Counted from the stretch's first letter, positions 7,768-27,308 are shown. The stretch: 64,000 bases of DNA from Rhodospirillales bacterium (GCA_028277795.1 JANQFP010000252.1:22490-86489); one strand, 5' to 3'. Translations and numbers: made by a program. The notes: generated by a model not told the origin, from the sequence alone.

Positions 7768-7947
7768 TCCCGGCGTGCCGACGGCATTTCAAGAACTTAT
7801 TATTTTTCAATCCTTGCTGTATAACACTTGGGGTGTGGGTTGATCCCGGCACACCGACCGGGTGACACGCGGCCATGTGGGCCGGAGCGCTGTCGCGGTG
7901 GTGCCGGCCGGGCCCGGGGGAAGCGGCTGCGAGGAGCAGGGTGACGG

Positions 7948-8742
7948 ATGTCCATTGCGACGATTCTCGGCGTGGTGGCCGCCTTCGCGTTGTTCGTCGG
8001 AGCGATCATCTACAGCACCGACAACTACTGGGTCTTCCTCAGCCTGCCCAGCTTCATCATGGTCGTCGGCGGCACCATGGCGGCGACCTTCATCTCGTAC
8101 GAGCCACGGTACGTCCTGCTGTCGCTGAAGCTGATCTGGCGCATCGTGTTCTCGCCCAAGGTCAGCCGCAATGTGCTCAAGTCCGAGGTCGGGCGGGTCA
8201 TCCGCTGGGCCTACACGGTGCAGAAGAGCGGCATCCCGGCCCTGGAGACCGAATCCAAGAAGGCGGTGCGCGGCGACCGCTTCCTGCGCTTCGGCATCGA
8301 CATGGTGGTCAGCGGCTACAACGGCGAGGAAGTCCGCGAGATCATGACCAACACCATCGAGACCACCTTCGTGCGCAACACCGTGCAGGTGGCCATCCTC
8401 AAGGCCATGGGCGCCGCCTCGCCGGCGTTCGGCATGATCGGCACCCTGGTCGGCCTGATCATCATGCTGGGCAAGATGGGCGAGGACCCGACCCAGCTCG
8501 GTCCGGGCCTGGCGGTGGCCCTGCTGACCACGCTGTACGGCGTGCTGTTCGCCCGCCTGGTCTACCTGCCGGCGGCGAGCAAGATTCTGCAGCGCGAGGA
8601 GATCGTGCGATTCCGCAACTACCTCGTGGCCGAGGGGCTGGCGCTGCTGGCGGACCGCAAGAGTCCCCGCTACATCCAGGACAAGATGAACAGCTACCTG
8701 GATCCCTCCATCCACTTCAACATCGACAAGATGAAACGGTAG
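7948..8742 (+). CDS. motA: MotA/PomA-type stator proton-channel protein (MotA/TolQ/ExbB family)
   Basis: 264 aa with four TM segments and the conserved C-terminal channel region (GPGLAVALLTTLYGVLFARL). Confidence 0.8.
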   Translation: MSIATILGVVAAFALFVGAIIYSTDNYWVFLSLPSFIMVVGGTMAATFISYEPRYVLLSLKLIWRIVFSPKVSRNVLKSEVGRVIRWAYTVQKSGIPALETESKKAVRGDRFLRFGIDMVVSGYNGEEVREIMTNTIETTFVRNTVQVAILKAMGAASPAFGMIGTLVGLIIMLGKMGEDPTQLGPGLAVALLTTLYGVLFARLVYLPAASKILQREEIVRFRNYLVAEGLALLADRKSPRYIQDKMNSYLDPSIHFNIDKMKR

Positions 8743-8775
8743 CCGCCCGGACGAGGCGACGAGGACACGGGACCG

Positions 8776-9570
8776 ATGGCCGCGCCCAACTGGAAGAAGA
8801 AACCGCCCGAGGACGAACCCGAGGACTGGCTGGTCACCTACGCCGACGCCATCACCCTGCTGATGGCGTTCTTCGTCATGCTGGTCTCGTTCTCCAAGAT
8901 CGACATCCCGCTCTACGAAAAGGTGGCGGCGGGGATCAGCGAGGAGATCGGCAAGCAGGACCATCAGGCCAGTCCCACCGAGCTCCTCAAGATCGACCTT
9001 CAGGACGTGGTCTACACCCTGGAGGCCGACGAGGTGGTGGAGGTGGACACCGACGAAAAGGGCATCGTGCTCGAACTGGCCAGCTCGGCCTTCTACAAGC
9101 CGGGCTCGGCGGACATCCGCGACGAGGCCTTTCCGGTGCTGGCCAAGATGGCGCAGGCCCTGTCGGCGCCGCGCTACCGCAACTACGTCATCGAGGTGGA
9201 AGGCCACACCGACGACGACCCCATCAGCACCTTCCAGTTCCCCTCCAACTGGGAGCTGTCGTCCGGGCGCGCGACGCGGGTGGTCCGCTTCTTCATCTCC
9301 CAGGGCATCGAGCCGAGCCGCCTCAAGGCCGCCGGCTTTGCCGAGACCCGCCCCAAGGTGCCCAACCGCACGGCCGACGGGGCGCCGATCCCCGATAACC
9401 AGGCCGAGAACCGCCGCGTGGTGGTGCGCGCCTACCCCATGTCCCTCGAGGAACGGGAGGAGCAGATGCGCTTCATGGGGATCGAGGAGTTCGTGTCCGG
9501 CGACGCAGAGCGCGCGCCGCGGACCCCCGACTTCATGCCGCGCGGCCAGGGCGTGCGTACGACCCGCTGA
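8776..9570 (+). CDS. motB: MotB-type stator protein with OmpA-like peptidoglycan-binding domain
   Basis: N-terminal WLVTYADAITLLMAFFVML (contains the conserved channel Asp). C-terminal OmpA/MotB domain (GHTDDDPI ... NRRVVV). Confidence 0.8.
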   Translation: MAAPNWKKKPPEDEPEDWLVTYADAITLLMAFFVMLVSFSKIDIPLYEKVAAGISEEIGKQDHQASPTELLKIDLQDVVYTLEADEVVEVDTDEKGIVLELASSAFYKPGSADIRDEAFPVLAKMAQALSAPRYRNYVIEVEGHTDDDPISTFQFPSNWELSSGRATRVVRFFISQGIEPSRLKAAGFAETRPKVPNRTADGAPIPDNQAENRRVVVRAYPMSLEEREEQMRFMGIEEFVSGDAERAPRTPDFMPRGQGVRTTR

Positions 9571-9575
9571 TACCC

Positions 9576-9636
9576 GCGCGCCTTCGAGCCGACTCGCGAA
9601 GCGCCGTCATCGCACGTCGGAAAGCCCGCGCGGCGG
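9576..9636. repeat. REP-like structured intergenic repeat, copy 1
   Basis: ~60-nt GC-rich element starting a few nt after the motB stop. It recurs at 54518-54578, with ~53/60 identical positions by manual alignment. It contains nested inverted repeats (ccgcgcg/cgcgcgg; cttcgag/ctcgcgaag). Confidence 0.7.
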
Positions 9637-9702
9637 TACAATGCTGAACGTCGAAGCAGGAAATCGTTTTTGGTCAGCCGGTGAACGGCTCGTTCGGCGC
9701 CG

Positions 9703-10581
<879 letters not shown>

Positions 10582-10724
10582 TACTCCCGCTCCGCCGAAA
10601 CGCCGGCGTGACGCATCCTTTCCCGGCCGGACGACACCGCCGTGACGGATGCATCAGCGCAGCTCCCTCTGTGCCCTCAATCGCTTAAGATATGATGAAT
10701 ATGGGTATGGAACTGTGATGAAGG

Positions 10725-11459
10725 TCACACTTCCACAAAATCGATCGGGGTGCCAACGTTTAATTCGAGCTGCTGGTCGGCGCGGCCGCGGTTGACGGCG
10801 ATCTCCACCAGGCCGTTGGCGTTCTCGTACCAGAACGCGTGGCCGGGGGGCACCTCGGAGAACGTTTCGGCCCGGGTCAGGGTCGCGCCGCCGACGCGCA
10901 CGGCCGCCGTCGGCGGCGCCTCCGAGAACCGCATTCCGGTGACCGCGTTGCCGAAGCCGTCGATGTAGATCACCTCATGCAGGTCGTCCGGCCAGTCGAG
11001 CCGGCGCACGTCGTCCACCGGGCGCTCGAAGCCTTCGGGCTGCTCGTCGTGGGCGACCCGGGCGGCCAGGGGCGCGAACAGGTCGCGCCCATGGAAGGTG
11101 CGCGACAGGCGCTCGGGGCGCCAGGTGATCTCCCACCATCGTGCACCGTCACGGGCCCGCCGGATCACCATCTCGAACAGGCCGTTGTCCGGGCCCACGT
11201 ACCACCGGCCGTCGACGCTGAGCACACCGGGCGCCCGCTCGCCCCCGACCCCGGGGTCGACGACGCACAGGAACACGGTGCCGCGCGGGAACTCGTGGGT
11301 GTAGGCGGGCAGCAGATAGGCCGCCGCCCGGGGGTTGTGGGCGGGGGCGTCGGCGAACAGGCTGATCACCTCGACGCGGGGCGCCTCGCGCCGCAGGACC
11401 GCCTGCATCTGGCCGACGTAGGGGCCGGCCAGCCCGAAGTCCGTGAACAGGACAATCAT
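10725..11459 (-). CDS. SAM hydrolase / SAM hydroxide adenosyltransferase (DUF62, chlorinase/fluorinase-like family)
   Basis: N-terminus MIVLFTDFGLAGPYVGQM is typical of the DUF62 family. Start at ATG 11459. Confidence 0.75.
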   Translation of the reverse strand: MIVLFTDFGLAGPYVGQMQAVLRREAPRVEVISLFADAPAHNPRAAAYLLPAYTHEFPRGTVFLCVVDPGVGGERAPGVLSVDGRWYVGPDNGLFEMVIRRARDGARWWEITWRPERLSRTFHGRDLFAPLAARVAHDEQPEGFERPVDDVRRLDWPDDLHEVIYIDGFGNAVTGMRFSEAPPTAAVRVGGATLTRAETFSEVPPGHAFWYENANGLVEIAVNRGRADQQLELNVGTPIDFVEV

Positions 11460-11525
11460 GAACCGAGGCTTAGCGCGGTTGGCCGCCCCCGGCAAGAGGG
11501 CGGCGGTTCACCGCGGCGCGGACGG

Positions 11526-12401
11526 TCAGTCGGCGCCGGCCGCCAGCATCGCCGCCTTGACCTTGTCGAAGGCGCGCACCTCCAACTGGCGCACCCGCTC
11601 GCGGCTGATGCCGTAGATGTCGCCCAGCTCCTCCAGGGTCACGGGGTCGTCCTTGAGACGCCGCTCGACGAAGATGTGGCGCTCCCGATCGGGCAGCGTA
11701 CCCAATGCCCGGTCCAGAAGCTCACGCCTGAGCGCCAGTTCCTGGCCTTCGGCGGCCAGGGCCTCCGGCGTCGGCCCCTCGTCCACCAGGGTGTCCTGGA
11801 ACTCCACCGATTCGTCCTGGGAAAGCGGCGCGTTGAGGGACACGTCCCGCGCCGCCAGCCGACGGTTCATGTCGATGACGTCGGTCTCGCTGACGTCCAG
11901 TTCCCGGGCCAGGTGCGCCGCCTGCTCGGGCAGCAGGTCGCCGGTCTCGGTGATGCCCAGGTTGGCCTTGATGCGGCGCAGGCTGAAGAACAGCTTCTTC
12001 TGGGCGGCGACGGTGCCCATCTTGACCATCGACCACGAGCGCAGCACGTACTCGGTGATGGCCGCGCGGATCCACCACATGGCGTAGGTGGCCAGGCGGA
12101 ATCCCCGCTCGGGCTCGAACTTCTTCACCGCCTTCATCAAGCCGACGTTGCCTTCCGACACCAGGTCGGACAGGGGCAGGCCGTAGCCGCGATACCCCAT
12201 GGCGATCTTGGCCACCAGCCGCAGGTGGCTGGTCACCAACTGATGGGCGGCGTCCACGTCGCCGTGGTCACGCCACCGCGTGGCCAGCATGAACTCCTCC
12301 TCCGGCTCCAGGATCGGATACTTCCAGATCTCCTGGAAATACGCCGTCAGGCCGCTTTCCACAGGAACCGCAGGCAGGTTGATGGCTGTCATGGTCATCA
12401 A
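11526..12401 (-). CDS. rpoH: RNA polymerase sigma-32 (heat-shock sigma factor RpoH)
   Basis: Sigma-70 regions 2-4 and an RpoH-box-like AQKKLFFSLRRIK. Confidence 0.9.
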   Translation of the reverse strand: MMTMTAINLPAVPVESGLTAYFQEIWKYPILEPEEEFMLATRWRDHGDVDAAHQLVTSHLRLVAKIAMGYRGYGLPLSDLVSEGNVGLMKAVKKFEPERGFRLATYAMWWIRAAITEYVLRSWSMVKMGTVAAQKKLFFSLRRIKANLGITETGDLLPEQAAHLARELDVSETDVIDMNRRLAARDVSLNAPLSQDESVEFQDTLVDEGPTPEALAAEGQELALRRELLDRALGTLPDRERHIFVERRLKDDPVTLEELGDIYGISRERVRQLEVRAFDKVKAAMLAAGAD

Positions 12402-12781
12402 TTCTCCTCATCGTCATGCGTCGGCACGCGCGCCCCTCCGACCGGATGCATCCGCCGCCACGCGCCGGCAATCTGACGCGGACAGCCGTACGGAACACCC
12501 CGTCGACGTTCACTCAGAAACAAGGGAAACGACATGCACGCATGGGTCATATCCTCCAACAGAAGCAATATGCCGTCTGGACCCACCTCCGGTCGGGTCC
12601 GTCCCGGGACCGGCGCCGTCCTCGGCCGCCGAACCCGATTCGAATATGGCACAATACCCAACCGACATCAATGGTTTTCTAAGATGGGTATTTTACAACA
12701 AGCAATTACGCCACATAACTGAGGCACATCCTGAATAAAAAACCTCAATGGTCTGTTTGGAAAGGCTAATTGCCCCTGACG

Positions 12782-13720
12782 TCAGTTGCCCGGGAAACTG
12801 CGGGGCTGGTCGATGCTGGCCGGCTGGGTCTCCGGCTCGTCCTCGAAGATGCTGAGGTCGGGGATGGGCGGCAGGTCGAGGGATTCGCCGTTGTTGATCT
12901 CGGACTTGCGCCGTTGGCGGAACATGCTGCGGATGGCCGCGTAGTAGTCTATGGAGGTCTTCTTGACCTTGTCCAGCTCGTCCATCACGCCTTCGTACTC
13001 GACGATGCCTTCGAGCACCAGCCGCGACCACACCACGGCGTCGCGGTCGGTGTTGTCCAGCCACAAGTCGAGGGGGTCCATGTAGCGGTCCACCACCAGC
13101 TTGCCCACCGCGTCGCGGGGATTGGACGGGCCGAACACGGGCAGCACCAGGTAGAACCCCTCGCCCACGCCCCAAACGGCGAGGGTCTGGCCGAAGTCCT
13201 CTTCGTGTCGGGGAATGCCCATCTCCTCGGCCCGGTCGAAGATGCCGCCGATTCCCCAGGTGGTGTTGATGAAAAAGCGCTGGGTGGTTTGCCAGGCCCG
13301 ATCCGTCTCCCCCTGCAGCAGGTCGTTGGCCAGGATCACCGGGGTCTCCAGGTTGTCCAGCACGTTGCTCAGGGCGTTCTGGATGGGCGGCGGGATCAGC
13401 GCCCGGTAGAAGCCTGCGGCCGGCCGCAGTAGCAAGGTCTGGACCGCCTCGTTGAAAAAGAAGAAGGCCCGGTTGAGAGGCTCGAACGGGTCGTTGACGT
13501 CCTCGTCGTAGGCGTCGTCCTCGGGCTCGGTCTCGTCCGCCTGGGCCAGCAGCGGCACCACGACGACAGCCGTCACCTCCTCGTCGGCGAACTGGCCCTC
13601 GTAGGTGGCGAACAGGCCGCCGACGTCCACGTCCTCGGAGTCGCCGGCCACCGCCGGGGCTGCCACCGCGACCGCCACCGCCACCGCCAGCGCGCGGACG
13701 CCACTTCCCCAGACCGTCAC
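12782..13720 (-). CDS. mlaA: MlaA/VacJ-family outer-membrane lipoprotein
   Basis: VacJ signature region NDPFEPLNRAFFFFNEAV ... and WGIGGIFD. The ORF extends to 13906, but a GTG at 13720 gives a signal-peptide-like N-terminus (VTVWGSGVRALAVAVAVAVAAPAVAG). Confidence 0.75.
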   Translation of the reverse strand: MTVWGSGVRALAVAVAVAVAAPAVAGDSEDVDVGGLFATYEGQFADEEVTAVVVVPLLAQADETEPEDDAYDEDVNDPFEPLNRAFFFFNEAVQTLLLRPAAGFYRALIPPPIQNALSNVLDNLETPVILANDLLQGETDRAWQTTQRFFINTTWGIGGIFDRAEEMGIPRHEEDFGQTLAVWGVGEGFYLVLPVFGPSNPRDAVGKLVVDRYMDPLDLWLDNTDRDAVVWSRLVLEGIVEYEGVMDELDKVKKTSIDYYAAIRSMFRQRRKSEINNGESLDLPPIPDLSIFEDEPETQPASIDQPRSFPGN

Positions 13721-13998
13721 ACCGGAAAGACCGGGCACACACCCCTCCACGTGGTCGCCGCCTCGGCGGCACGAAAAAAACGCGAGCCCGGACCATTGCC
13801 GAGGTTCGCGAAGCCCTTCGCCCTTTGATAGGAGAAGTTCCAGTTTCCCGCAACTGTCATTTGGCGTTGTTCCAATGATTTGTGGGCAATCGGTGCCGCG
13901 GCGCAACAGCTTCGGATCATCCCCAAGGTTGTCATTGTCAGGTGGGGCTGCACGCCGTACTTTCTTGGCGGCGGATTCGGGGAGGGGGCTACGGGGAG

Positions 13999-14613
13999 AT
14001 GATTCGGAGGCGCCGATGGTTCGCCGTCGCGGTGATGCTGATCGTGGCGGTCGCGGCCAGGCCCGCGGCGGGCGACGATCGTACGCCGCCGGTGGTGGTC
14101 GCAGAGTTCCAGAACAGCCTGATCGCGATCATGAAGGAGGCCGCGGCATTGGGTTTCTCGGGGCGCTACCAGCGCCTCTTGCCGCCCATCGAGCGGGCCT
14201 TCCACCTGCCTCTGATGGTGCGCATCGCCACCGGCGCCCACTGGGCGCAGGCCGACGCCGATCAGCGCCGACGCCTGATCGACGCCTTCCGGCGCATGAG
14301 CGTCAGCACCGTCGCCACCCTGTTCGACGACTATGGCGGCGAGGCGTTCGAGCCGGTGGGCGAGCGGCCCGGCCCGCAGCGCACCCGCCTGGTCGAATCG
14401 AACATGACGTTCCCCGACAAGTCGCCGATCAACTTCGTCTACGTGGCCAAGAAGATCGACGGCCGCTGGTACCTGATCGATGTCGTCGTCGACAAGGGCA
14501 TCAGCGAACTCAACGTGCGGCGGTCCGAATACAATCTGGTGTTGAAGGAATCGGGCGTCGAGGGGCTGATCGACGCCCTCAACCGCAAGGCCGACGAGCT
14601 CGTCGCCCAGTAG
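13999..14613 (+). CDS. MlaC/Ttg2D-family periplasmic lipid-binding protein (HpnM-like), paralogue 1
   Basis: Signal peptide plus the toluene-tolerance Ttg2D/MlaC pattern (... DGRWYLIDVVVDKGISELNVRRSEY). ATG 13999 is preceded by GGGGAG. Confidence 0.75.
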   Translation: MIRRRRWFAVAVMLIVAVAARPAAGDDRTPPVVVAEFQNSLIAIMKEAAALGFSGRYQRLLPPIERAFHLPLMVRIATGAHWAQADADQRRRLIDAFRRMSVSTVATLFDDYGGEAFEPVGERPGPQRTRLVESNMTFPDKSPINFVYVAKKIDGRWYLIDVVVDKGISELNVRRSEYNLVLKESGVEGLIDALNRKADELVAQ

Positions 14614-14662
14614 CCGCGCCCACTTGCCGGCCGTAAAACCCGAGGAGGTTGGATCGACAGAC

Positions 14663-15280
14663 ATGTCCCGCCGCATCCTCGCCGTCGCCGTCGCCGCCAT
14701 GATCGCCGCCGCGGCCGGCGCCGCCACCCCGATCGCGGCCGCCGAGTCCGCCCGCACCGTGGTCGAGCGGTTCCACGAGTCCCTGATCGCCGTCATGAAA
14801 GCCGCCGACACCCTCGGCGTCATGGGCCGGTACGAGCGGTTGACCGACCCGGTCACCCGGGCGTTCGACCTGGAGCGCATGATCCGGGTCGCCACCGGGC
14901 CCTTCTGGCGCAAGGCCGAGGCGGATCAGAGAGACCGCCTGCTCGCCGCCTTCACGCGCATGAGCGTCGGCACCTATGCCTCCCGCTTCAAGGGCTACTC
15001 GGGCGAAGCCTTCGAGACCGTGGCCGAGCGGCCGGGGCCGCAGAACACGATCCTGGTGGCGACGCGGATCGTGCCGGCCGACGACGCCCCCGTGGACATC
15101 ACCTACGTGATGAAGACCCGCGACGGGAGCTGGCGCATCGTCGACATCCTGCTCGACAACAGCGTCAGCGAGCTGGCCGTGCGCCGCTCCGAATACCGCC
15201 GCGTCCTCGACAAGGAGGGCGCCGACGGGCTCATCGCCATCCTCGACCGCAAATTCACCGAGCTCACCGGGGAGCGCTGA
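14663..15280 (+). CDS. MlaC/Ttg2D-family periplasmic lipid-binding protein (HpnM-like), paralogue 2
   Basis: Clear paralogue of the upstream gene (... DGSWRIVDILLDNSVSELAVRRSEY), with a signal peptide. Confidence 0.75.
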   Translation: MSRRILAVAVAAMIAAAAGAATPIAAAESARTVVERFHESLIAVMKAADTLGVMGRYERLTDPVTRAFDLERMIRVATGPFWRKAEADQRDRLLAAFTRMSVGTYASRFKGYSGEAFETVAERPGPQNTILVATRIVPADDAPVDITYVMKTRDGSWRIVDILLDNSVSELAVRRSEYRRVLDKEGADGLIAILDRKFTELTGER

Positions 15281-15286
15281 CGGCGG

Positions 15287-16303
15287 TCACTCCTTTTCCG
15301 CGGCTGCCGGCCGCCATGAGAACCCGGCACCCATGGCCAGGCCCGACAGGATCCACACCAGCTCGCGGAAACGGCGGACCACGGCCACCGCCACGCCCAG
15401 GGTCGGCGACCCGGTGATGGCGGTGCACACGATCAGGAAGCCCCCTTCCTGGGCGCCCAGGCTGATGGGGATGAAGAAGGTGCCGGCACGCACGAGCTGC
15501 GCCACCGCCTCGATCATCCAGGCCTCGGTGAACGACACCGGATGGCCCAGGAAGGCCATGGCGGCATAGACCTCGAGCACGCCCAGAAACCAGTTGATCA
15601 GGCCCAGGGTCGCCGCCACGGCGAAGCGCCCGCGGCGACGGGTGTAGAACGCCACCAGGCGCTCGTCCACATCGTGGATCAGGTGCAGGACCTCGTCGAG
15701 GCGGCGGGCGATGCGCCAGCGGCTGAGGCGGCTTCCGGTGGCCGAGGAGATCTTGAACCGCTGCACCAGGAAGAACAGCCCGATGCCGACCACCAGGGCC
15801 GTCAGGCCGGCCCCGGCCACCGACTTCAGGGACGCCGGCATGGCCGGCGAGGCGATGAGGAAGGCGAAGCCGCCGCCCAGGAAGACGATGAGAGCCAGCA
15901 GGTTGATGGTCTTGGCGAGGATCAGCGACGCCGTGCCCTCCCGGTAGCCGACGCCGTAATGGCGCTTGAGCAGCACCGCCTTGACCGGCTCGCCGCCCAT
16001 GCCGCCGGCGGGGATGACGGCGTTGAAGGCCTCGCCCACCATGCGCACCTTCCACAGGCGGTACAGCCACCGGCCGTCCACCGGCAGCGAGCCGACGGTC
16101 AGCAGCCACGACAGGGAATCGAACACGAAGGCCAGCAGGTAGAGCCCCAGGACCACCAGGATGCCCCACCCCACCTGGCCGACCCGCGCCGCCACCTGGG
16201 CCAGATCCACGTCGTGCAGGACCAGCGCGAGCAGCCCCAGGCCGAGGAGCAGGTAGAGGCCCTTCAGCCAGCGCACGGCGCGCCGCTTCCGCTCACCGGT
16301 CAC
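15287..16303 (-). CDS. hpnL: HpnL-like integral membrane protein (UPF0104 / lysyl-PG-synthase TM-region family)
   Basis: ~8 TM helices and a flippase-like family pattern. GTG start overlaps the hpnN stop by 11 nt. Confidence 0.7.
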   Translation of the reverse strand: MTGERKRRAVRWLKGLYLLLGLGLLALVLHDVDLAQVAARVGQVGWGILVVLGLYLLAFVFDSLSWLLTVGSLPVDGRWLYRLWKVRMVGEAFNAVIPAGGMGGEPVKAVLLKRHYGVGYREGTASLILAKTINLLALIVFLGGGFAFLIASPAMPASLKSVAGAGLTALVVGIGLFFLVQRFKISSATGSRLSRWRIARRLDEVLHLIHDVDERLVAFYTRRRGRFAVAATLGLINWFLGVLEVYAAMAFLGHPVSFTEAWMIEAVAQLVRAGTFFIPISLGAQEGGFLIVCTAITGSPTLGVAVAVVRRFRELVWILSGLAMGAGFSWRPAAAEKE

Positions 16304-18893
16304 CGGCCGGCACCCGCGGCCACAGCACCATCAACGCCGGCAGCACGGTCAGGGTGCAGGCCAGGGTGAGACCGATGGCCGCTGTCAGCAGCACGCCCAT
16401 GCTCGACGTGCCCGGGTGGCTGGACAGGGCCATGCTGCCGAAGGAGCCGATGGTGGTCAGCGCGCTCAGCACCACGGCCCGCGGCGTGCTGGTCCTCAGC
16501 ACCCGCCCGGTGTCGCCCTCGCCGCGCTCGCGGGCCACCAGGTGGATGCCGCTGGCCACGCCCAGGCCGAACAGCAGGGGCAGGACGATGACGTTGGCGA
16601 AGTTGAACGGCAGGCCCACCAGCACCGAGACGGCCACCGTCAACAGGGCCGCCAGGCCCAAGGGCGCGAACACCAGCAGCACGTCCCGGGGGCGGCGCAT
16701 CAACGCCGCCAGCAGCACCGCGATCAGGGCCAGGGCCAGGGCCGCGGCCTGGACGAACGCCCGCACCACGGCCCGGCCCGCCTCCAGGATGATCACCGGC
16801 GATCCGGTGGCCGCCGGCGCCTGCGTGCGCACCGCCTCGACGAACCGGCGCAGGGCGTCGGGATCGCGCAGGTCGTCGCGGGGAAACACCTGGACGCGGA
16901 CCCGGCCGTCGGTGGCCACGTGCCGCTCGCGCAGGCCCGCCGGCAGGTCATCCACGGTGACCGGCCCGGCCTCCAGGGCCTCCACGAGCGCGTCCAGGCG
17001 CCCCGGCAGGCCCGCCAGCAGCCCCGTCTCCAGGTCCCGCAGCACTTCGTCGGTCGGCGCCGCCGGCAGCGCGTCGGCGAGGCGACGGGCCGCCGCCATG
17101 GCCCCCTGCCCCGCCGCGAGCCGGACGAGCCGGTCGCGGAGGCGGTCAAGGGCGGCCCGGCGCGCCGCCATGTCGGGCGGCTCCTTGGGCGGGGCGGCGA
17201 GGGCCGGCGCCAGGTACAGGGCCATGGTCCCGATGATGTCCAGCTTGCCGTCCTGGTTGGCGGGCACGTAGTCGCCGATGGTGCGCACCCCGTCCACCGG
17301 GCCCAGATCCTCCAGGCGCCGCGCCATGTCCTCGGCCGCGGCCATGTCCCCGGCCAGCACGGTGATGGTGTAGGGACTGGTCTCCGGGTCGGCCATCAGG
17401 TCGAACAGGGTGGAGACCGATTCGGTCTCCGGGTCCTTCAGGTTCAGGGGATCGAAATCGAAGCGCGCCTGCGGCACCGTTACGGCGGCGGCGGCGGCCA
17501 CCGCCAGGGCCCCCCAGGCGATGGGGACGGCCCGCGCCCCGATCACCTGTCGGGCCCCGCGCCAGGCCGGCTCCCGGTGCCGGTGCGCCGACGGCCGCAG
17601 GGGCATCAGGGTGAGCATGGCCGGCAGCACGGTGGTGTTGGTGATCAGGGCGATGACCATGCCGGTGCCGGCGATCAGCCCGAGCTCGGCCAGACCCTTG
17701 TAGTCGGTGGGCAGGAACGCGAAGAAGCCGATGGCCGCGGCCACGGCGCACAGGGTCAGCGCCCCGCCCGAGCCCTTGGCGGCGGCGGCCAGGCCCTTCC
17801 GGTGGTCGGCTCCGCGGTCCACCGCCTCCTTGTAGCGCAGTCCGAAATGGATGCCGAAATCGACGCTGAGGCCGATGAACAGGACGGCGAAGGCGACGGA
17901 GATCAGGTTCAGGCTGTCCAGGGCGGCGACGGCGAACCCCGCCGTCCATACCAGGCCCGCCAACAGGGTCGCCACGATGGCCAGGGCCAGGCGCGGCGAC
18001 CCCAGCCCGAACAGCAGCAGGGTCACGACGACCGTGAGCGACAGGACCGCCGCCAGGCCCAGGCCGTCGCGGACGCTCAGCAGCTCCTCCTCGGCCAGGG
18101 CGGCCGAGCCGGTCAGGCGCACGCGGACGCCGGCGTCCTCGTCGAGACCCAGCTCGGCCACCAGGCCGCGCAGGGCGGCGATGGCTTCGGCCGCAGGCTG
18201 CAGGGAGCCGAAGTCCAGCACCGGCTGGATCAGGATCAGGCGGCGGCCGTCGTCGCCGCCGGTCATCAGTTGGCGCCACGACAGGCGGGCGAACCGGCCG
18301 TCGGCTCGCGCCTCGGCCACCTCGGCCATCGCAGTCAGGACGGGAGCAACATCGATGGGCGGATCCTCATCCGCAACCAGGATCTCGTCGATCGCAAGGG
18401 TCAGCATGTCGGCCAGGCCGCGCAACGTGGGGTCGCGCCGGAGCGCGCCGAGGAACGGTTGGGCCTCGGCCAGGCGGTCGGCCAGCGCCTCCAGGGCGTC
18501 GGTATCCATGTAGAGGAGCCCGTGGCGGCGGAAGAAGGGCTCGCCGGCCGGATCATAGACGTCGCCGAACAGGGCCGGGCGCTCCCTGAGCCGCGCTGCC
18601 AGGAGCCGCGCGGCATCGTCGGCCAGGTCCCCGGTGGCCCCGTCGATGACCACCAGGATGTTGTCCGAGAACTGGGGAAACGCCGCCGACAGGGCGCGGG
18701 AGTTCTGACGGAACGGCAGCTCCGCCGACAACATGTCCTCGGTGTCGGTGTTGATGGTCACGGCGTCGACCACGTAGGCGCCGATGGCGACGGTGGCCGT
18801 TACCGCGGCCAGCACAACAGCGGCGGCGCCACGCCGGACCAGGTCGACCCAGCGGACGACCCAGCGGCGGAACCTGGCGGCGGCTTCGGTCAC
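16293..18893 (-). CDS. hpnN: hopanoid-associated RND/MMPL transporter HpnN
   Basis: 866 aa with duplicated 6-TM plus periplasmic-loop RND architecture. Located in the hpn cluster next to hpnL/hpnM-like genes. Confidence 0.85.
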   Translation of the reverse strand: MTEAAARFRRWVVRWVDLVRRGAAAVVLAAVTATVAIGAYVVDAVTINTDTEDMLSAELPFRQNSRALSAAFPQFSDNILVVIDGATGDLADDAARLLAARLRERPALFGDVYDPAGEPFFRRHGLLYMDTDALEALADRLAEAQPFLGALRRDPTLRGLADMLTLAIDEILVADEDPPIDVAPVLTAMAEVAEARADGRFARLSWRQLMTGGDDGRRLILIQPVLDFGSLQPAAEAIAALRGLVAELGLDEDAGVRVRLTGSAALAEEELLSVRDGLGLAAVLSLTVVVTLLLFGLGSPRLALAIVATLLAGLVWTAGFAVAALDSLNLISVAFAVLFIGLSVDFGIHFGLRYKEAVDRGADHRKGLAAAAKGSGGALTLCAVAAAIGFFAFLPTDYKGLAELGLIAGTGMVIALITNTTVLPAMLTLMPLRPSAHRHREPAWRGARQVIGARAVPIAWGALAVAAAAAVTVPQARFDFDPLNLKDPETESVSTLFDLMADPETSPYTITVLAGDMAAAEDMARRLEDLGPVDGVRTIGDYVPANQDGKLDIIGTMALYLAPALAAPPKEPPDMAARRAALDRLRDRLVRLAAGQGAMAAARRLADALPAAPTDEVLRDLETGLLAGLPGRLDALVEALEAGPVTVDDLPAGLRERHVATDGRVRVQVFPRDDLRDPDALRRFVEAVRTQAPAATGSPVIILEAGRAVVRAFVQAAALALALIAVLLAALMRRPRDVLLVFAPLGLAALLTVAVSVLVGLPFNFANVIVLPLLFGLGVASGIHLVARERGEGDTGRVLRTSTPRAVVLSALTTIGSFGSMALSSHPGTSSMGVLLTAAIGLTLACTLTVLPALMVLWPRVPAGDR

Positions 18894-19111: not shown

Positions 19112-19816
19112 ATGGAATTTAGCGTCACCAGGCTGGATATAGTTTTCGAAACTGTATTCATTAGGCCGGCTTTCTCCGTCGCACAAAAAACGACAAAAGT
19201 ACTGGAATCTATTTATGACGCATTGAGCCCGAGATTTTCCGTTCAACTCTCTGACCTGCAGGTCCAACCTGGTTTATCCTTTGCTGACGTCTTCGTTCGT
19301 GTCAATATTTTTGGAGGCAACGGGCAGTTGGAACTCAGAGTTGATAAGTTCACTGGTCGATTCCAAAACCTAAAAACGAGCGACGACGTCAAATCAGTAA
19401 AAGAAAGCCTGGACTTGAGCGAAAAGGCCATCGCCGAAGTTATTCCAGACATGCGGGAGAAAACCACGGCTATTCGCACAGCTTCCTGGTTGAACTGTGG
19501 ATTGGATGGCGCCGCGGCGGCGAATTTACGAGAGAAATGGGTCGACGCGTCTGCCAACGTCCCCTACCGCCAATTGGGGGCCGCGAGCTTGAATTGCCCG
19601 ATTGAGGCCAGTTTCGACAACGAAGAAGAACGATGGGCGGTATCTTTCCGTATTGAGCCTTCGGCTTCGAACTCGGCCGACCTATATTTCGCATGCAATG
19701 GCTTGTACGCGCCGGGTGGCAAGTTTAGCAACCTTGATGAGAGGGCCGAACACATGGAAATCCAGTATCTAGGACTGCTGAGACACTTCGGGTTCGAGCC
19801 ACCGGAAACGCGATAG
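19112..19816 (+). CDS. hypothetical protein (no recognisable domain), first gene of a low-G+C islet
   Basis: 234-aa ORF with an AT-richer composition than the flanks. It ends 22 nt upstream of the Xre-like antitoxin gene. Confidence 0.6.
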   Translation: MEFSVTRLDIVFETVFIRPAFSVAQKTTKVLESIYDALSPRFSVQLSDLQVQPGLSFADVFVRVNIFGGNGQLELRVDKFTGRFQNLKTSDDVKSVKESLDLSEKAIAEVIPDMREKTTAIRTASWLNCGLDGAAAANLREKWVDASANVPYRQLGAASLNCPIEASFDNEEERWAVSFRIEPSASNSADLYFACNGLYAPGGKFSNLDERAEHMEIQYLGLLRHFGFEPPETR

Positions 19817-19838
19817 CCTGACAACCGAGAAATCAGCT

Positions 19839-20462
19839 ATGCCCACAAATGGACAGGTCCAGCGGGAAGAGGAGTGGCTTGCGGCCAGCACGCACTTCGT
19901 TCCCTTTGAGCAGAGTAGTAGCGCCGTGGAAGGGTCTCCGGCACGCAGCTCAAAGGGTCTACAGCTCGGAATCGGCCCCGATTGGGCAAGGGGTCCGGGA
20001 AATGTAGATCGAGCCACCACAGCGGTTCGTGACTCCTTAAGGGAGACCGAGAGAAGCGAAGCTCGAAATCGATTTGTCGCGTTACCTTTGCCAGAGGAGG
20101 GAAGTTTTTCGGGCCGAGTGACGGCCCCCGTCCGGTTCTTCGCTAGAGTTCTAGAAGTTTGGGGACTGGATCGCAGCGCCGCGGCAAAGCTGCTCGGGTA
20201 CGAAGATGATCGTCTGGCACATGAACTCTTGTCCGGCGCCGCAAGCCTGCGAACCCGGGACGCCAAAGACAGGATACGCCACGTTTTCGTAATTAGGGAG
20301 GCCCTGCACCAGTTGTTCCGGGACGAACGTGTTGAAAGGGAGTGGCTTCGGGAACCGCGCCCCGAACTGAACAACAACACTCCCATCCAGCTCCTTCTGG
20401 AAGGATCGATGGAAAACATGTTGCTTGTTCGGCAACTCGTGGAGTGGATGGTGGGCCGGTAA
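19839..20462 (+). CDS. Xre/MbcA/ParS-family antitoxin (DUF2384 toxin-binding domain)
   Basis: C-terminal WLREPRPELNNNTPIQLLLEGSMENMLLVRQLVEWMVGR fits the DUF2384 pattern. Immediately precedes a RES-domain gene. Confidence 0.75.
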   Translation: MPTNGQVQREEEWLAASTHFVPFEQSSSAVEGSPARSSKGLQLGIGPDWARGPGNVDRATTAVRDSLRETERSEARNRFVALPLPEEGSFSGRVTAPVRFFARVLEVWGLDRSAAAKLLGYEDDRLAHELLSGAASLRTRDAKDRIRHVFVIREALHQLFRDERVEREWLREPRPELNNNTPIQLLLEGSMENMLLVRQLVEWMVGR

Positions 20463-20466
20463 CATC

Positions 20467-21111
20467 GTGCTTGAGCAAGTCGTCCCGCTGGAAGTGTCTG
20501 AAACTGTTTTCAGGTTTGCGAACCGACCTAAGCACGCCAAGTTTCTCGAAGACATGGACTTCGATCCCGATGACCAGGAGGAAATCCTCTCCTTCGTCGA
20601 GTCGATCCACGCCAAGTCCGACCTCCAAGACCTCTTGGACGGCCCGTTCGCGCGCAAGCCCGTGCTGGAGACAGCCCGAGCCCGCCAATCCCGCTTCTCG
20701 GATGGTCGTCTCCGTATCTTCTATAGCTCGCTTGAGCTCGAGACCGCGAAGGCGGAGACGTTCCACTGGTACGCAAAAGCGGCGCTCGCAAGTGGATCAG
20801 CGGCAAGGACCGTCTATTATGAAAGGTTCCATTGCCGATTTCAGGGAACAGCATGGGACCTGCGCCTGCAGGCCTCCGAATGGTCCTTTCTCGCCGATCC
20901 CGACGAGAGTGCCTATCCGCACTGTCAGCACGTCGCTGCGGAGGCCGTCGCCGCCGAACTGGACGGCTTGCTGACACCATCGGCGCGAAATACGAACGGA
21001 ACCAATGCACCGGTTTTCAGCCGGACGGCGCTCTCGGAACCGCAAGTCCTCGGTTACACGGCCTTCTCATCGGACCCCGACAGCGGGCGGATAAGGGCGG
21101 TGGACAGGTGA
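20467..21111 (+). CDS. RES-domain toxin (NAD+-targeting MbcT/ParT-like family)
   Basis: R...Y/E...S pattern (SRFSDGRLRIFYSSLELETAKAE ... LTPSARNTNGTNAPVFS). GTG start 4 nt after the antitoxin stop (the track ORF starts at TTG 20425). Confidence 0.75.
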   Translation: MLEQVVPLEVSETVFRFANRPKHAKFLEDMDFDPDDQEEILSFVESIHAKSDLQDLLDGPFARKPVLETARARQSRFSDGRLRIFYSSLELETAKAETFHWYAKAALASGSAARTVYYERFHCRFQGTAWDLRLQASEWSFLADPDESAYPHCQHVAAEAVAAELDGLLTPSARNTNGTNAPVFSRTALSEPQVLGYTAFSSDPDSGRIRAVDR

Positions 21112-21169
21112 CGCCAGAGTCCACTTCACCTCAACAGTGACGCTCACCGTCGAGAGTAGGCTTCGGACC

Positions 21170-21784
21170 ATGAAGGCGCCGCCCTGGGATCAACGCATCG
21201 CCCGGACCCTGGTTCGGCCCCTCGCCGGCACGCCGGTGACGCCCAACCATGTCACCGTGCTCACCATCGTCCTGGCCCTGACCGGCGCCGGATTGCTGGC
21301 GGTCGGCGATCCCGTTCTCGCCAACTGGGGCGCCGGCCTGTTCGTGCTCGCCCGCTTCATGGACCACCTGGACGGCGAGCTGGCCCGGCAGACCGGACGC
21401 ACCTCGCGGGTCGGCTACTACCTGGATTACGGGGCCGGAGGACTGAGCTACGCCGCCCTGTTCCTCTGCATCGGCATCGGCTTCCGCGACGGCGCGCTGG
21501 GCCCGTGGGCCATCGCCCTGGGGGTGGCCGGCGCCGCCTCCGCCGTCGTCTCGCTGTTCCTGAATCTCGGCATCGACCGAGCCCAGAAGCGGAGGCAGGG
21601 CACCGAAGGCGACGCCGTCGGCTACCCCGGGTTCGCCGGCTTCGAGCTGGAGGACGGGATCTATCTGCTGGCGCCGGTGACCTGGCTCGGCTGGCTGGAG
21701 CCCTTCTTCGTCGCCGCCGCCATCGGGGCCGTGGTCTACACCTTGTGGAGCGTGGGGCGTCTGGCCCTGGTGCGCCGCCGGTAG
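21170..21784 (+). CDS. CDP-alcohol phosphatidyltransferase-family membrane protein (motif variant lacking the last Asp)
   Basis: DHLDGELARQTGRTSRVGYYLDYGAG matches DGxxAR-x8-G-x3-D, but the final conserved D is G. Multi-TM. Paralogue of the convergent gene. Start could be GTG 21137. Confidence 0.75.
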   Translation: MKAPPWDQRIARTLVRPLAGTPVTPNHVTVLTIVLALTGAGLLAVGDPVLANWGAGLFVLARFMDHLDGELARQTGRTSRVGYYLDYGAGGLSYAALFLCIGIGFRDGALGPWAIALGVAGAASAVVSLFLNLGIDRAQKRRQGTEGDAVGYPGFAGFELEDGIYLLAPVTWLGWLEPFFVAAAIGAVVYTLWSVGRLALVRRR

Positions 21785-22362
21785 AGGATCGCCGCGAACA
21801 GCAGCGCGAAGGCCGGCGCGCCGATGGTCGCCGCCCACAGGAGCGGCAGGGACCAGCCCAGCCACACCGCCACCGGCACCGCCAGCACGGCGTCGTCCGG
21901 GTCGAATCCGGCGAAGCTGCCCAGCTCGGCGGCCCGCTCGCCGCCCAGGGCCTCCATGCGGACCGTCATCCACAGCACCGCGGCAATGGCGCCGCCGGCC
22001 AGGACGCCCATGGGGATGGCCCACATCCCCAGTTCGCTGCTTCCGAGGCCGATCCCGAGGCCGACGAAGGCCAAGGCGTTGGACAACGCGTCGGCCCACA
22101 GGTCGTAGACGTGGCCCCGGGCCGACGTGCGGCCGGTGGCGCGGGCCAGTTCGCCGTCCGCCCGGTCGAGCACCATCGACACCACGAACACGGCGCCGCC
22201 CACGTGGATCCACGGGGCCGCGCCGGTGGCCAGAAAGGCCGCCGCCGCCAGCCCGCCGGCCAGCCGCAGGGTGGTGAGCTGGTTGGGGGTCACCGGCGTC
22301 GCCGCCAGGGGGCGGACGATGGCGACGCGGGCCAAGCGGTGAATCCAGGTGTTGTGGCTCAC
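21736..22362 (-). CDS. CDP-alcohol phosphatidyltransferase-family membrane protein (complete motif)
   Basis: DRADGELARATGRTSARGHVYDLWAD gives the full DGxxAR-x8-G-x3-D-x3-D motif. GTG start at 22362 overlaps the ppd stop (GTGA). Only the C-terminal part of track ORF 21736-22854 is considered coding. Confidence 0.8.
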   Translation of the reverse strand: MSHNTWIHRLARVAIVRPLAATPVTPNQLTTLRLAGGLAAAAFLATGAAPWIHVGGAVFVVSMVLDRADGELARATGRTSARGHVYDLWADALSNALAFVGLGIGLGSSELGMWAIPMGVLAGGAIAAVLWMTVRMEALGGERAAELGSFAGFDPDDAVLAVPVAVWLGWSLPLLWAATIGAPAFALLFAAILYRRRTRARRPTLHKV

Positions 22363-23507
22363 GGCGCCGCCCCGTCGGCGAGGAAGGCCCGGAAGCGCCG
22401 CGCCACCTCGGACGGATGCACCGTCGGCCGGCCGAGCCCGGACATGGAGCCGGGCGCGATGCGCATGTGCACCAGGGCCGGCCCGGCGGCGCCGAGGGCG
22501 TCGGACACGGCCGACGAGAAGCCGTCCGCGGAATCGCAGACCGCCGCCCGGGAGTATCCGCAGGCGAGCGCGGCGCCGGCGAAGTCCACCGCCGCCGACA
22601 CGGTCGGCTGACCGCCGGTCGAATCGTAGGTGCCGTTGTCGAGCACCACGTGGAGGAGGTTCTTTGGCGCATAGGCGCCGATGGTGGCCAGGGTCCCCAT
22701 TTTCATCAGTGCCGCCCCGTCGCCGTCGACCACCACCACCGGGCGGTCCACCCCCAGCGCCACGCCCAGCCCCATGCCCGCCGCACAGCCCATGGAGCCC
22801 ACCTGATAGAGATGCTGCGGGCGGTCGGCAAGGGTGAACAGCTCGCGGCCGCATTTGCCGGTGGTGGCGATCACCGCCGCCGCCTCGGGCAGAGCCTCCA
22901 GCAGGCGCTCCAGCACCGCCATGCGGGCCGGCGGGGCCCCACCCTCCTCCAGGTCCCGGCGAACCCCGGTCGGCCGCGGCCCGGGCGCCAGGGCGTCCAG
23001 CGCGGTCTCGGCCACGTCGCCCTTCTCCATGATGAAGGCGAAGGGCAGGCCGGTGTCCTGCATGCGTTCCGTGGCCTCGGACAGGGCACCGGCCACGTCT
23101 TCGGCGGCCTTGGGGAACGGCCGGTGGGGAACCCGGATGGTGTCCAGCAGGGCCGGGGTGATCTGCCCCATGAGCTCGTGCTGGGGCTCGTCCTCGAGGC
23201 CGGGGCCGCCCCGCCAGGTGACCACCAACAGCGTCGGGATTCGGAACGGAAAATTTAAAGAAGTTAGTGGGTTAACGGCGTTTCCTAAACCGGAATTCTG
23301 ACACATGACGACGCTGTCGCGGCCCGTCAGCCAAGCGCCGGCGGCGATGGCCACCGCCTCGCCCTCGCTGGCCGCGGCCACGTAGGTCAGGGACCGGTCG
23401 CCGAGGGTGCCGTTGATGATGGGGGTAAGGAACGAGCACGGCACGCCGGTGAAGAACTGCAGGCCGGCGGCGCGCGCCGGCCCCAGAAAGGCGTCGGCGT
23501 CGATCAC
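22359..23507 (-). CDS. aepY: phosphonopyruvate decarboxylase
   Basis: ThDP enzyme: N-terminal [11 protein letters not shown] ... [13 protein letters not shown] and ThDP motif [34 protein letters not shown] 23507 overlaps the upstream stop (GTGA). It is the C-terminal 382 aa of track ORF 22359-24950. Confidence 0.85.
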
Positions 23508-25225
23508 AGGAACTGGCCCGCGTGCACCAGGTCGGCGGCGTCGTCCACGTCCAGCCACTGGCCGGCCACATACAGCACCCGCACCGTCGTCTCGCCGCCC
23601 GCGGCCAGACGGCTGAACAGGTCGAGCAGGCTGGCCTTGGGCAGGGTCCCGTCGGCGGCCATGGCCTCGATGACGCCGCGCACGGCCGCGCAGCCGCGGT
23701 CGCTGAGGCGGGCCAGGCCCACCCATTCGCCGTGGGCGCGGTCCGGGGGCACGTCGTTGCCCATGCGCACCAGGGTGACCGGGTCGTCGTCCAAATAGCT
23801 GCCGGAGAAGGGCCGCGAGCACACCGCCAGGTCGCGCACCGGGTCGGATCCGCTGACCGCGCGTTGGCGCCACAACGCATCCACGGCCACCACGACGTCG
23901 CCGTCGGCCGCCATCAGCTGGTCCAGGTAGTGGTGGCGGAACAGGATGTCGCCGTAGGCGATGACGCAATCGCCCTGCAGGTGGTCGGCGGCACAGGCCA
24001 GGCTCGCCGCCTCGCCGGTGACCGCGTAGAGGTCGTTGTCCACGGTGCGGATGGACGGCAGGTTGATCATCTCCTTGCGGTAGCCGCGGACGACGGTGAC
24101 CTCGCCCACGCCCCCCTCGCGCAGGGTGGCGATGAGGCGGCGCAGCAGCGGCTCGCCGCGCACGTCGATCATGCACTTGGGGCGGTCGGCGGTAAGCGGC
24201 CCCAGGGCGGCGCCGCGGGACGCCGCCAGCAGCACGGCGCGCCGCTCCGGCGGCCCCGAGGACGGCAGGTAGCGGCGCTCGGCCTCGGCCAGCTCGTCGT
24301 TGCCGGCCAGCTCGAAGACCTCGCCGACGCTGGCCACCTGGCCCTCCACGCCGACCAGGCTCTCCTCGCGCTGGATGCGGCGCGACACCTCGCGCATGGC
24401 AGTGATGGCGGCGCGCAGGTTGTGATTGGCCCAGATGGCCACCGAGAACCCGGCCTGGCGGAACACCGAGGTGGGCGTCGTGTGGTACTTGGTGGGCACG
24501 ATGACCACCGGCGCCCGGTCCCCCCACGCACCCTTGAAGGCCAGCACCTCGTCGGCGGTGGGCATCTTGGAGTGGATCAGCAGGGCGTCGGCGCCGGCGG
24601 CGTGGTAGGCCTCGGCCCGGCGCAGGGCCTCGTCCAGCCCCCAGCCCGAGATCAGCGCCTCGATGCGGGCCACAAGGCAGAAGTCGGGGTCCGTCTGGCT
24701 GTCCTTGCCGGCCTTGATCTTGCCGCAGAACTCGTCGATGTCGGCCAGGGGCTGGCCCTCGCCGATGAACGAGTTGGTCTTGGGGAACAGCTTGTCCTCG
24801 ATGCAGATGCCGCCGATGCCCCGCTGGCACAGTTTGGCCACGGCCCGGCGCACGTTGTTGAAGTTGCCCCAGCCGGTGTCCCCGTCCACCAGGATGGGGA
24901 TGGAGGTGGCGTCGGCCATGAACTCCAGGACCTCCAGCACCTGGGTCCACGACGCCTCGTTGTTGTCGCGCACCCCCAGGGCGGTGGCGATGGACAGCCC
25001 CGATGCCCAGATGCCCTTGAACCCCGCCTCCTCGACGATCTTGGCCGACATGCCGTCGTGGGCCTCCATCAGGAACTCGAGGCGCGGAGACCGCAACAGG
25101 GCGGCGAGGCGGGCGGCCTTGGTGATTTCGGCGGGCTCGGCGGCGCCGAGGGGACGGAGGGGTGTGGTCATGGCGGTGCGGGCAGGACGGGGTTGAACGC
25201 GGACCGGCAGGTCGTTTAGTTTCAC
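23504..25225 (-). CDS. aepX: phosphoenolpyruvate phosphomutase fused to a C-terminal nucleotidyltransferase (cytidylyltransferase-like) domain
   Basis: Ppm-diagnostic EDKxxxxxNS motif ([10 protein letters not shown]) within an isocitrate-lyase/PEP-mutase fold. C-terminal ~270 aa has an NTP-transferase pattern ([25 protein letters not shown]). The start may instead be ATG 25171. Confidence 0.85.
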
Positions 25226-25305
25226 GCGGCTGTCATTATATCAACACGAAAGTGCAACAAAAGCGTCGCCGTGCCGGCGGCCGAACAAGGGTTTTCAGTT
25301 CCGCC

Positions 25306-26064
25306 ATGCTCCGCACTCCCGTGCTCACCGAGCCGCAGATCGAGGCCTTCCGCGACACCGGCTATCTGGTCGTGCGCGGCGCCTTCGACGCCGCCGAAAT
25401 GACCCGAGTCGACGCCTGGGCCCGAGAGATCGCCGCCTGGCCCGAGGTCTCGGGCCGCCACTGGGTGTTCCACGAGAAAAGCCGCAAGGGCGACGACGCC
25501 GACCTCATCTGCCGCATCGAGAAGCTGTCGCCGTTCCACGACGGCTTTGCCGAGCTGAGCCGGGTGCTGGAGGGCCCCGTGGGCCAGCTCATGGGCGAGC
25601 CGGCGGTGCTGTTCAAGGAGAAGATCAACTTCAAGATGCCGGGCGGCGACGGCTTCAAGCCCCACCAGGATTCCCAGGCCGGCTGGGACGCCTACGCCGA
25701 GTTCTTCGTCAGCGCCCTGGTGTGCATCGACGAGGCGACGCCGGAGAACGGCTGCCTGCAGATGGTGTCGGGCCACCACCGGCGCGGGCTGTTCCGCTCA
25801 TGGGAGCCGCTGACCGACGAGGACATGGCGGGCATGGACTTCGTCGACTGCCCGACCAGGCCCGGCGACATCGTGTTCTTCGACTGCTACGCGCCCCACG
25901 GCTCCCAGCCCAACATGAGCGACCAGACCCGGCGCATCTACTTCGCCACCTACAACAAGGCCTCCGAGGGCGACCACATGGCCCGGTACTACGCCGACAA
26001 GCACAAGACCTATCCCCCCGACATCGACCGCGAGCCGGACAAGGAGTACGTGTTCCGGGTGTAG
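25306..26064 (+). CDS. PhyH-family Fe(II)/2-oxoglutarate dioxygenase
   Basis: HxD facial-triad motif (KPHQDS), distal His (APHGSQPN) and Arg (RRIY). Divergent from the ppm operon. Confidence 0.8.
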   Translation: MLRTPVLTEPQIEAFRDTGYLVVRGAFDAAEMTRVDAWAREIAAWPEVSGRHWVFHEKSRKGDDADLICRIEKLSPFHDGFAELSRVLEGPVGQLMGEPAVLFKEKINFKMPGGDGFKPHQDSQAGWDAYAEFFVSALVCIDEATPENGCLQMVSGHHRRGLFRSWEPLTDEDMAGMDFVDCPTRPGDIVFFDCYAPHGSQPNMSDQTRRIYFATYNKASEGDHMARYYADKHKTYPPDIDREPDKEYVFRV

Positions 26065-26089
26065 GCGCCGGCGCCTGGGCGGTTCGGGC

Positions 26090-26479: not shown

Positions 26480-26490
26480 CGATGCCCCCG

Positions 26491-27231: not shown

Positions 27232-27308
27232 GCCGGCGTCTGGACGGCAGCCGAGGCCGTGGTCGAAGCCTCGCGAAGTTCGGATGCCAACGTTGACGGA
27301 TTGACAGA

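Follow-up and report, generated by a model that had tools for sequence, protein, structure and literature searches.

Introduction

The locus considered here raises the question of what proteins resembling MlaA and MlaC, the outer-membrane and periplasmic parts of the Mla lipid shuttle, are doing beside the gene of the RND transporter HpnN. It occupies positions 12782-18893 of a 64-kb stretch of DNA from a Rhodospirillales bacterium (GCA_028277795.1, JANQFP010000252.1:22490-86489), the whole of which was analysed and is called the window below. A preceding reading made from the DNA alone (the sequence-only reading) had proposed a periplasmic hopanoid relay in which an RND pump takes the place of the Mla ATP-binding cassette (ABC) engine. 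This proposal gained support from the HpnM family match, the conserved gene order and orientation, the surrounding hopanoid supercluster and the same model in the literature. The locus is probably an HpnN-HpnM-HpnS hopanoid trafficking module of an uncultured Rhodospirillales-type alphaproteobacterium, in which the RND pump would replace the MlaFEDB engine. This relay interpretation is already in print, and the locus is another example of it, not a discovery.

Results

Gene models of the transport module

Genes were chosen by guanine-plus-cytosine (GC) content at third codon positions and then tested against Pfam and NCBIfam, the GC content of the window being about 68% and the raw lists of open reading frames (ORFs) being full of spurious frames; the scan for families took in about 65 ORFs across the 64 kb. 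All of the genes named by the sequence-only reading were found in the window as Pfam or NCBIfam profile matches, with small corrections only. Identical public proteins fixed the gene models of HpnM2 (205 amino acids (aa), P0001), of a third MlaC-like protein designated MlaC3 (208 aa, P0121) and of HpnS (318 aa, P0241). The module comprises the following features:

12782-13738, minus strand: hpnS, MlaA/VacJ-domain protein, 318 aa (PF04333, E 1.4e-66)
13739-13998: divergent intergenic region between hpnS and hpnM1, 260 bp, a presumed promoter region on the basis of gene orientation alone
13999-14613, plus strand: hpnM1, periplasmic MlaC-fold protein, upstream copy (PF05494, E 5.8e-29; TIGR03481, 174.7 bits)
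14663-15280, plus strand: hpnM2, periplasmic MlaC-fold protein, downstream copy (PF05494, E 2.5e-35; TIGR03481, 210.1 bits)
15287-16276, minus strand: hpnL-like gene, protein of 329 aa with an MprF-type LPG_synthase_TM/flippase-like domain (PF03706, E 3.8e-28)
16293-18893, minus strand: hpnN, RND/MMPL-type hopanoid transporter (Pfam MMPL; TIGR03480, 992.9 bits against a cut-off of 751.85)

A consensus scan for promoters and terminators around the module gave none beyond the shuffled expectation.

The tandem HpnM proteins

The two tandem genes, previously described as paralogous and MlaC/Ttg2D-like, both encode an MlaC domain according to Pfam, and both products also exceed the curated cut-off of the HpnM family (TIGR03481, IPR017842; 160.1 bits). 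Against the true MlaC equivalog NF011697, which has a cut-off of 195 bits, HpnM1, HpnM2 and MlaC3 scored 21.7, 38.2 and 69.6 bits, respectively. Structure prediction, which had been proposed for the MlaC paralogues, gave an AlphaFold2 (AF2) model of HpnM2 with a mean predicted local distance difference test (pLDDT) score of 90.9 and the MlaC fold, the best Foldseek match being E. coli MlaC (7vr6) at template modelling (TM) scores of 0.77/0.85. The N-terminus of HpnM1, MIRRRRWFAVAVMLIVAVAARPAAG, resembles a signal peptide, and signal-peptide-like starts are present on all four soluble or outer-membrane proteins; the export signals of HpnM and HpnS were judged by eye, on the basis of charged and hydrophobic segments and an AxA-type site.

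HpnM1 and HpnM2 are 49% identical. In a rough neighbour-joining distance tree, built with no support values and used just for grouping position-1 against position-2 copies, the upstream copies of more than 40 loci grouped with hpnM1 of the window, and the downstream copies, together with most single copies, grouped with hpnM2. Identity was 49-51% within each clade, 43% between the clades and 35-57% between partners of the same locus. This grouping and these identities indicate that the hpnM duplication is old and that both copies have been retained. Only two positions (Q38/H38 and E115/Q115) are fixed within each clade yet unlike between the clades, which is too few to speak for or against the idea of the sequence-only reading that paralogues such as HpnM1 and HpnM2 differ in cargo. 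In one related locus (L050 5505-7617) the tandem comprises three hpnM genes.

HpnS, a non-lipidated MlaA-like protein

The stop of hpnS lies at 12782, and its start either at 13738, which gives the 318-aa product 100% identical to P0241, or at 13720. The protein begins with a signal peptide, which is followed by some 50 residues of a disordered acidic linker, rich in aspartate and glutamate (pLDDT below 50), and then by an MlaA core at residues 81-300. It matched MlaA of the PDB in a phmmer search (E 8e-26), and the core of its AF2 model aligned with MlaA structures 5nuo/8i8r at TMt 0.70-0.77 and 32-35% identity; its score against the MlaA equivalog NF011672 was 111.7 bits, with the cut-off at 375.

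The gene had been read as that of a VacJ/MlaA-type lipoprotein, and only the first half of this description stood: the Pfam match confirms the MlaA type, but the 318-aa product contains no cysteine, and HpnS is therefore not a lipoprotein. Cysteine is likewise absent after residue 15 in 108 of the 120 closest HpnS homologues, and the public annotation of close HpnS relatives as "VacJ family lipoprotein" is misleading for this clade. A candidate lipobox, LAFFSC, encoded in a longer ORF of 374 aa, was rejected, since it is not preceded by a charged and hydrophobic signal sequence and lies ahead of the start in the public gene call. MlaA homologues of the signal peptidase I type are known elsewhere.

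HpnL and HpnN

The order of an HpnL-like membrane protein gene followed by the RND transporter gene hpnN after the tandem pair was found as expected from the sequence-only reading. HpnN passes the cut-off of TIGR03480, and against the stricter NF052374 it scored 745 bits, under the cut-off of 1100. The HpnL-like protein scored 156 bits against TIGR03476, below the HpnL cut-off of 195.65; its PF03706 domain is one that we take to be an MprF-type flippase-like membrane domain. The hpnL-like gene closes the hpnN-hpnL operon and is syntenic in 37 of the 80 related loci described next.

Conservation across related loci

The 80 loci come from a scan in which an HpnM alignment was run against a single genome of each GTDB species, and the presence of genes was determined by tblastn with the window proteins; nearly all of the loci belong to Rhodospirillales-type or unclassified alphaproteobacterial metagenome-assembled genomes, with protein identities to the window of at most 66%. 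The order and orientation hpnS(-) hpnM1(+) hpnM2(+) hpnL(-) hpnN(-) are kept within 10 kb in most of them. The hpnS gene was detected in 55/80 loci, at least two tandem hpnM genes in 46/80 and hpnN in 61/80 (60-61, depending on the tblastn cut-off). The clustering of the module genes is not due to chance, and its distribution shows the module to be conserved deeply, as a unit, among marine and groundwater Rhodospirillales. In fourteen loci hpnS, hpnL and hpnN are all missing, and in 12 of these the lone hpnM stands directly against ispH, hpnH, hpnG and shc.

The rpoH gene (11526-12407, minus strand) directly adjoins hpnS, or the lone hpnM, in 52 of the 80 loci. The run of genes ahead of rpoH (7945-11507) is also conserved and encodes motA-like and motB/OmpA-like proteins, a metallo-beta-lactamase-fold hydrolase and an S-adenosylmethionine hydrolase.

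The hopanoid supercluster and mlaC3

The transport module forms one end of a complete hopanoid supercluster, which runs from rpoH through hpnS, hpnM1 hpnM2 and hpnL hpnN, a RES/Xre toxin-antitoxin insert and a phosphonate block to hpnA, ispH and hpnH, then parDE, hpnG and shc, a BglII-type restriction-modification (R-M) pair, and finally the hpnE-like gene, hpnD, hpnB, hpnC and mlaC3. HpnA, HpnH, HpnG, SHC, HpnD, HpnB and HpnC gave NCBIfam matches over the curated cut-offs, and the hpnE-like gene is of the amine-oxidase type.

29170-41462: hopanoid biosynthesis genes hpnA, ispH, hpnH, hpnG, shc, hpnE-like, hpnD, hpnB and hpnC (NCBIfam/family matches)
33772-35739: shc
40611-41462: hpnC
41483-42127, minus strand: mlaC3, divergent MlaC-like periplasmic protein (PF05494, E 2.2e-44)

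A third MlaC-like gene had been said to head the hpnC-B-D-E block, and it was indeed located directly upstream of hpnC, as the first gene of the series mlaC3-hpnC-hpnB-hpnD-hpnE-(R-M insert)-shc-hpnG. MlaC3 is 21% identical to HpnM1; its HpnM score (108.6 bits), like its MlaC score, is under the cut-off. In 5/5 other contigs sampled, orthologues of mlaC3 stand immediately upstream of hpnC, and the genes upstream of these orthologues are unrelated from contig to contig. This adjacency in all of the sampled contigs indicates that mlaC3 represents a separate MlaC-like clade linked to hopanoid/squalene genes, and the possibility that it is a housekeeping MlaC was largely rejected as unlikely on the same grounds. 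In one metagenomic contig (L086 7001-10508) the mlaC3 orthologue heads hpnC, hpnD and hpnE only, with no shc after them, which hints that the mlaC3 clade may be connected with squalene synthesis and not with cyclised hopanoids.

The phosphonate neighbourhood

Between hpnN and hpnA lies a block of genes assigned, by family matches, to the synthesis of a phosphonate head group. It includes two cytidine diphosphate (CDP)-alcohol transferases, a thiamine pyrophosphate (TPP) decarboxylase and a phosphoenolpyruvate (PEP) mutase:

21095-28835: phosphonate head-group block
21095-21784, plus strand, and 21736-22350, minus strand: two CDP-alcohol transferases
22359-23498, minus strand: TPP decarboxylase
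23504-25240, minus strand: PEP mutase fused to a nucleotidyltransferase
25126-26064, plus strand: PhnY-like dioxygenase
27954-28835, minus strand: second nucleotidyltransferase gene

CDP-alcohol-transferase/phosphonate markers were found in 40 of the 43 loci that have HpnN and at least 4 kb of sequence beyond hpnN (Ppd, PepM or PhnY-like genes in 36/43), against 0/14 loci lacking hpnN. In many relatives a CDP-alcohol transferase gene, a third one, is located inside the operon itself, between hpnL and hpnN (e.g., L002:11667-12407). The transport block is present and the Ppd, PepM and PhnY-like genes are absent in three loci (L008, L019 and L034), and no 2-aminoethylphosphonate (AEP) transaminase was identified in the window.

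Absence of an Mla engine and comparison with known systems

In agreement with the sequence-only reading, no MlaFEDB genes were found in the window: none of the ORFs scanned belonged to the MCE, MlaE, STAS/MlaB or MlaF types. The sole ABC gene (4358-6436) encodes an ABC_membrane+ABC_tran fusion and stands beside an HlyD gene.

The E. coli Mla system (MlaFEDB-MlaC-MlaA/OmpC) shares with the window the fold of the carrier (TM about 0.8 to 7vr6), that of the outer-membrane partner (TMt about 0.75 to 5nuo/8i8r) and the logic of a periplasmic shuttle between both membranes. In contrast to it, the locus has no ABC/MCE engine nearby, the linked inner-membrane part being an RND pump; its proteins score far under the MlaC and MlaA equivalog cut-offs, its MlaA-like protein is a non-lipoprotein, its cargo is presumed to be triterpenoid and its direction is presumed to be anterograde.

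The closest resemblance is to the module described by Lawrence, Pan, Ollikainen and Belin (bioRxiv 10.1101/2025.07.29.667474), which is likewise made up of the HpnN RND pump, an HpnM resembling MlaC and an HpnS resembling MlaA, is accompanied by hpnL and close to shc, has signal peptides and the same proposed mechanism, and includes Rhodospirillales among the orders listed. The window differs from it in having two old tandem hpnM genes instead of one, an extra sub-threshold MlaC-like gene heading the hpnC operon, an HpnS with no lipobox cysteine, and interleaved phosphonate and CDP-alcohol-transferase genes.

The BstA-BstB-BstC system of sterol transport in Methylococcus capsulatus is alike in combining an HpnN-related RND pump with periplasmic/outer-membrane-associated carriers and in its polycyclic triterpenoid cargo, but its partner proteins have unrelated folds (BstB is PhnD-like). 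HpnN of the window scored 201 bits against the BstA equivalog NF045600, the cut-off of which is 1400, and no BstB- or BstC-like neighbour was found in the window. The HpnN-HpnT route of Hyphomicrobiales (Bradyrhizobium, Rhodopseudomonas) has the pump and the hopanoid cargo in common with the locus, whereas its proposed carrier is a DUF2147/lipocalin-like protein, for which no gene was found in the window.

Other genes of the window

The hopanoid operon contains an R-M pair of lower GC content, situated between shc and the hpnE-like gene and consisting of a BglII-type endonuclease (35782-36603, minus strand) and an MT-A70 methyltransferase (36588-37286, minus strand); in four orthologous operons (L082, L083, L085 and L087) hpnE directly neighbours shc, the R-M genes being absent from this position. 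Toxin-antitoxin modules also interrupt the supercluster or sit close by. Genes of an Xre antitoxin and a RES toxin occupy a 2-kb low-GC stretch between hpnN and the phosphonate genes (19782-21111), ParD and ParE are encoded between hpnH and hpnG (32441-33041), a VapB-like gene of the Rv0623 family is located at 26491-26772 and a PIN-domain gene at 57835-58338. Farther along, another stretch of lower GC content carries a LuxR/LuxI quorum-sensing pair, i.e., an autoinducer-binding regulator and an autoinducer synthase (51073-52589), followed by a PhyH-family dioxygenase gene (52964-53941).

Discussion

From the family membership, fold, gene order and conservation observed here, we infer the hand-over steps of a relay and their direction as follows. 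Hopanoids would be made at the inner membrane, where HpnL may translocate them to its outer leaflet and may present the cargo to HpnN. Driven by protons, HpnN, the role of which has been shown in other species, would extract them from this leaflet and hand them to the soluble periplasmic carriers HpnM1 and HpnM2, which would bring the lipid to the inner face of the outer membrane and dock there on HpnS to deliver it. An ABC/MCE engine would not be needed in such a relay because HpnN would supply the energy. MlaC3, presumably co-transcribed with the squalene/hopene genes, probably takes part in this traffic or else transports an early product.

This scheme agrees with published work. Lawrence et al. 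(10.1101/2025.07.29.667474) found hpnL, hpnM and an MlaA-domain family, which they named hpnS, to be enriched near shc and hpnN, proposed an HpnN-HpnM-HpnS relay "analogous to Mla proteins" and presented an AlphaFold 3 model of an HpnM/HpnS/diploptene complex; according to the same preprint, TIGRFAM GenProp0761 had already listed a VacJ-like lipoprotein. In Burkholderia ubonensis, a transposon insertion in the VacJ-family gene of the hpnN operon lowered the minimum inhibitory concentration of meropenem, and in the same 2020 mBio paper this gene was called likely outer-membrane and needed for pump function, on unpublished data. HpnM of Tistlia consotensis, a member of the Rhodospirillales, was found in the exoproteome with a Sec signal and was eight-fold more abundant at low salinity.

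Several points weigh against a hopanoid relay at this locus. No paper was found showing lipid binding or transport by any HpnM or HpnS, and every solved MlaC homologue binds glycerophospholipid. The canonical Mla system, represented by MlaA-MlaC of E. coli, is generally taken to be mainly retrograde, so the direction of the relay is assumed here. HpnS has no lipobox that would account for its route to the outer membrane. The synteny sample represents one clade, in which the counts are not independent events, and the close co-inheritance with phosphonate genes leaves room for some other cargo or a modified one. Finally, Rhodopseudomonas and Bradyrhizobium move hopanoids via HpnN with neither HpnM nor HpnS, so neither protein is universally required (10.1101/2025.07.29.667474).

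A rival explanation would make the MlaA- and MlaC-like genes ordinary parts of Mla phospholipid homeostasis, with MlaFEDB encoded elsewhere and the adjacency to hpnN devoid of functional meaning. Pfam does place the proteins in the MlaA and MlaC families, their solved relatives all bind phospholipid, and the window holds just part of the genome, so an MlaFEDB operon may lie outside it. We nevertheless regard this explanation as highly improbable: all four proteins fall well short of the cut-offs for the MlaC and MlaA equivalogs and two of them pass that of HpnM, the linkage to hpnN or hopanoid genes persists across dozens of species while the outer neighbours change, and, in the account that Lawrence et al. 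give of Tripathi et al. 2025 (Arch Microbiol 207:107), such organisms have extra mlaC copies beside hopanoid genes and a separate mlaC beside mla genes. The module could also work in the opposite direction, as a retrograde or quality-control system in which HpnS would take mislocalised lipid out of the outer membrane for HpnM to return to the inner one, HpnN being the acceptor or acting independently. The retrograde assignment of the E. coli system, the fold and docking partner of which are conserved here, speaks for such a role, but RND/MMPL pumps are known as exporters, HpnN is reportedly needed for the outer-membrane localisation of hopanoids in Rhodopseudomonas palustris, and the sequence gives no sign of direction. 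This explanation, too, is given very little probability.

The phosphonate genes deserve more weight. A phosphonate lipid had been named by the sequence-only reading as an alternative cargo, and the co-inheritance of the markers with hpnN (40/43 loci against 0/14 of those that also lack hpnS and hpnL) lends this idea some support, while hopanoids stay the best-supported cargo. The module in this clade would then export a phosphonate-bearing lipid, either a phosphonolipid or a hopanoid with an AEP-type head group, in place of plain hopanoids. PEP mutase, the decarboxylase and a cytidylyltransferase would make an activated phosphonate, which an enzyme of the CDP-alcohol-transferase type would join to a lipid alcohol; HpnL would flip the product, and HpnN, HpnM and HpnS would carry it outward, with a possible division of decorated and undecorated cargo between HpnM1 and HpnM2. 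The CDP-alcohol transferase in the hpnL-hpnN gap of many relatives and the fusion of PEP mutase to a nucleotidyltransferase in the window are consistent with this scheme, as is a linkage of shc to PEP mutase noted independently in Roseomonas by a genome survey of Acetobacteraceae, where it was read as an "undiscovered terpene-phosphonate". On the other side stand the three loci that keep the transport block with no Ppd, PepM or PhnY-like genes, the AEP transaminase not identified in the window, and the origin of the loci from one clade, in which one past insertion could account for the association. To our knowledge, the HpnN-HpnM-HpnS modules of Burkholderia and other taxa are free of phosphonate genes, and we know of no phosphonate-decorated hopanoid. 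Phosphonates are not mentioned in the preprint on the relay either (bioRxiv 10.1101/2025.07.29.667474). On balance, a phosphonate-bearing cargo appears unlikely, though worth keeping in view. The bolder version, in which the transport block and the phosphonate genes are one unit making and exporting a phosphonate-decorated hopanoid and HpnM1, HpnM2 and MlaC3 each carry a different species (decorated, undecorated and early triterpene), is a speculation that we doubt somewhat more.

With regard to the hopanoid relay itself, this locus adds no new principle. What it offers are natural variants for testing the relay: a long-standing pair of HpnM paralogues, a third clade of MlaC-like proteins linked to squalene/hopene synthesis and a non-lipidated MlaA-like partner. 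Of the leads given here, only the phosphonate co-inheritance could bring new lipid chemistry to light.

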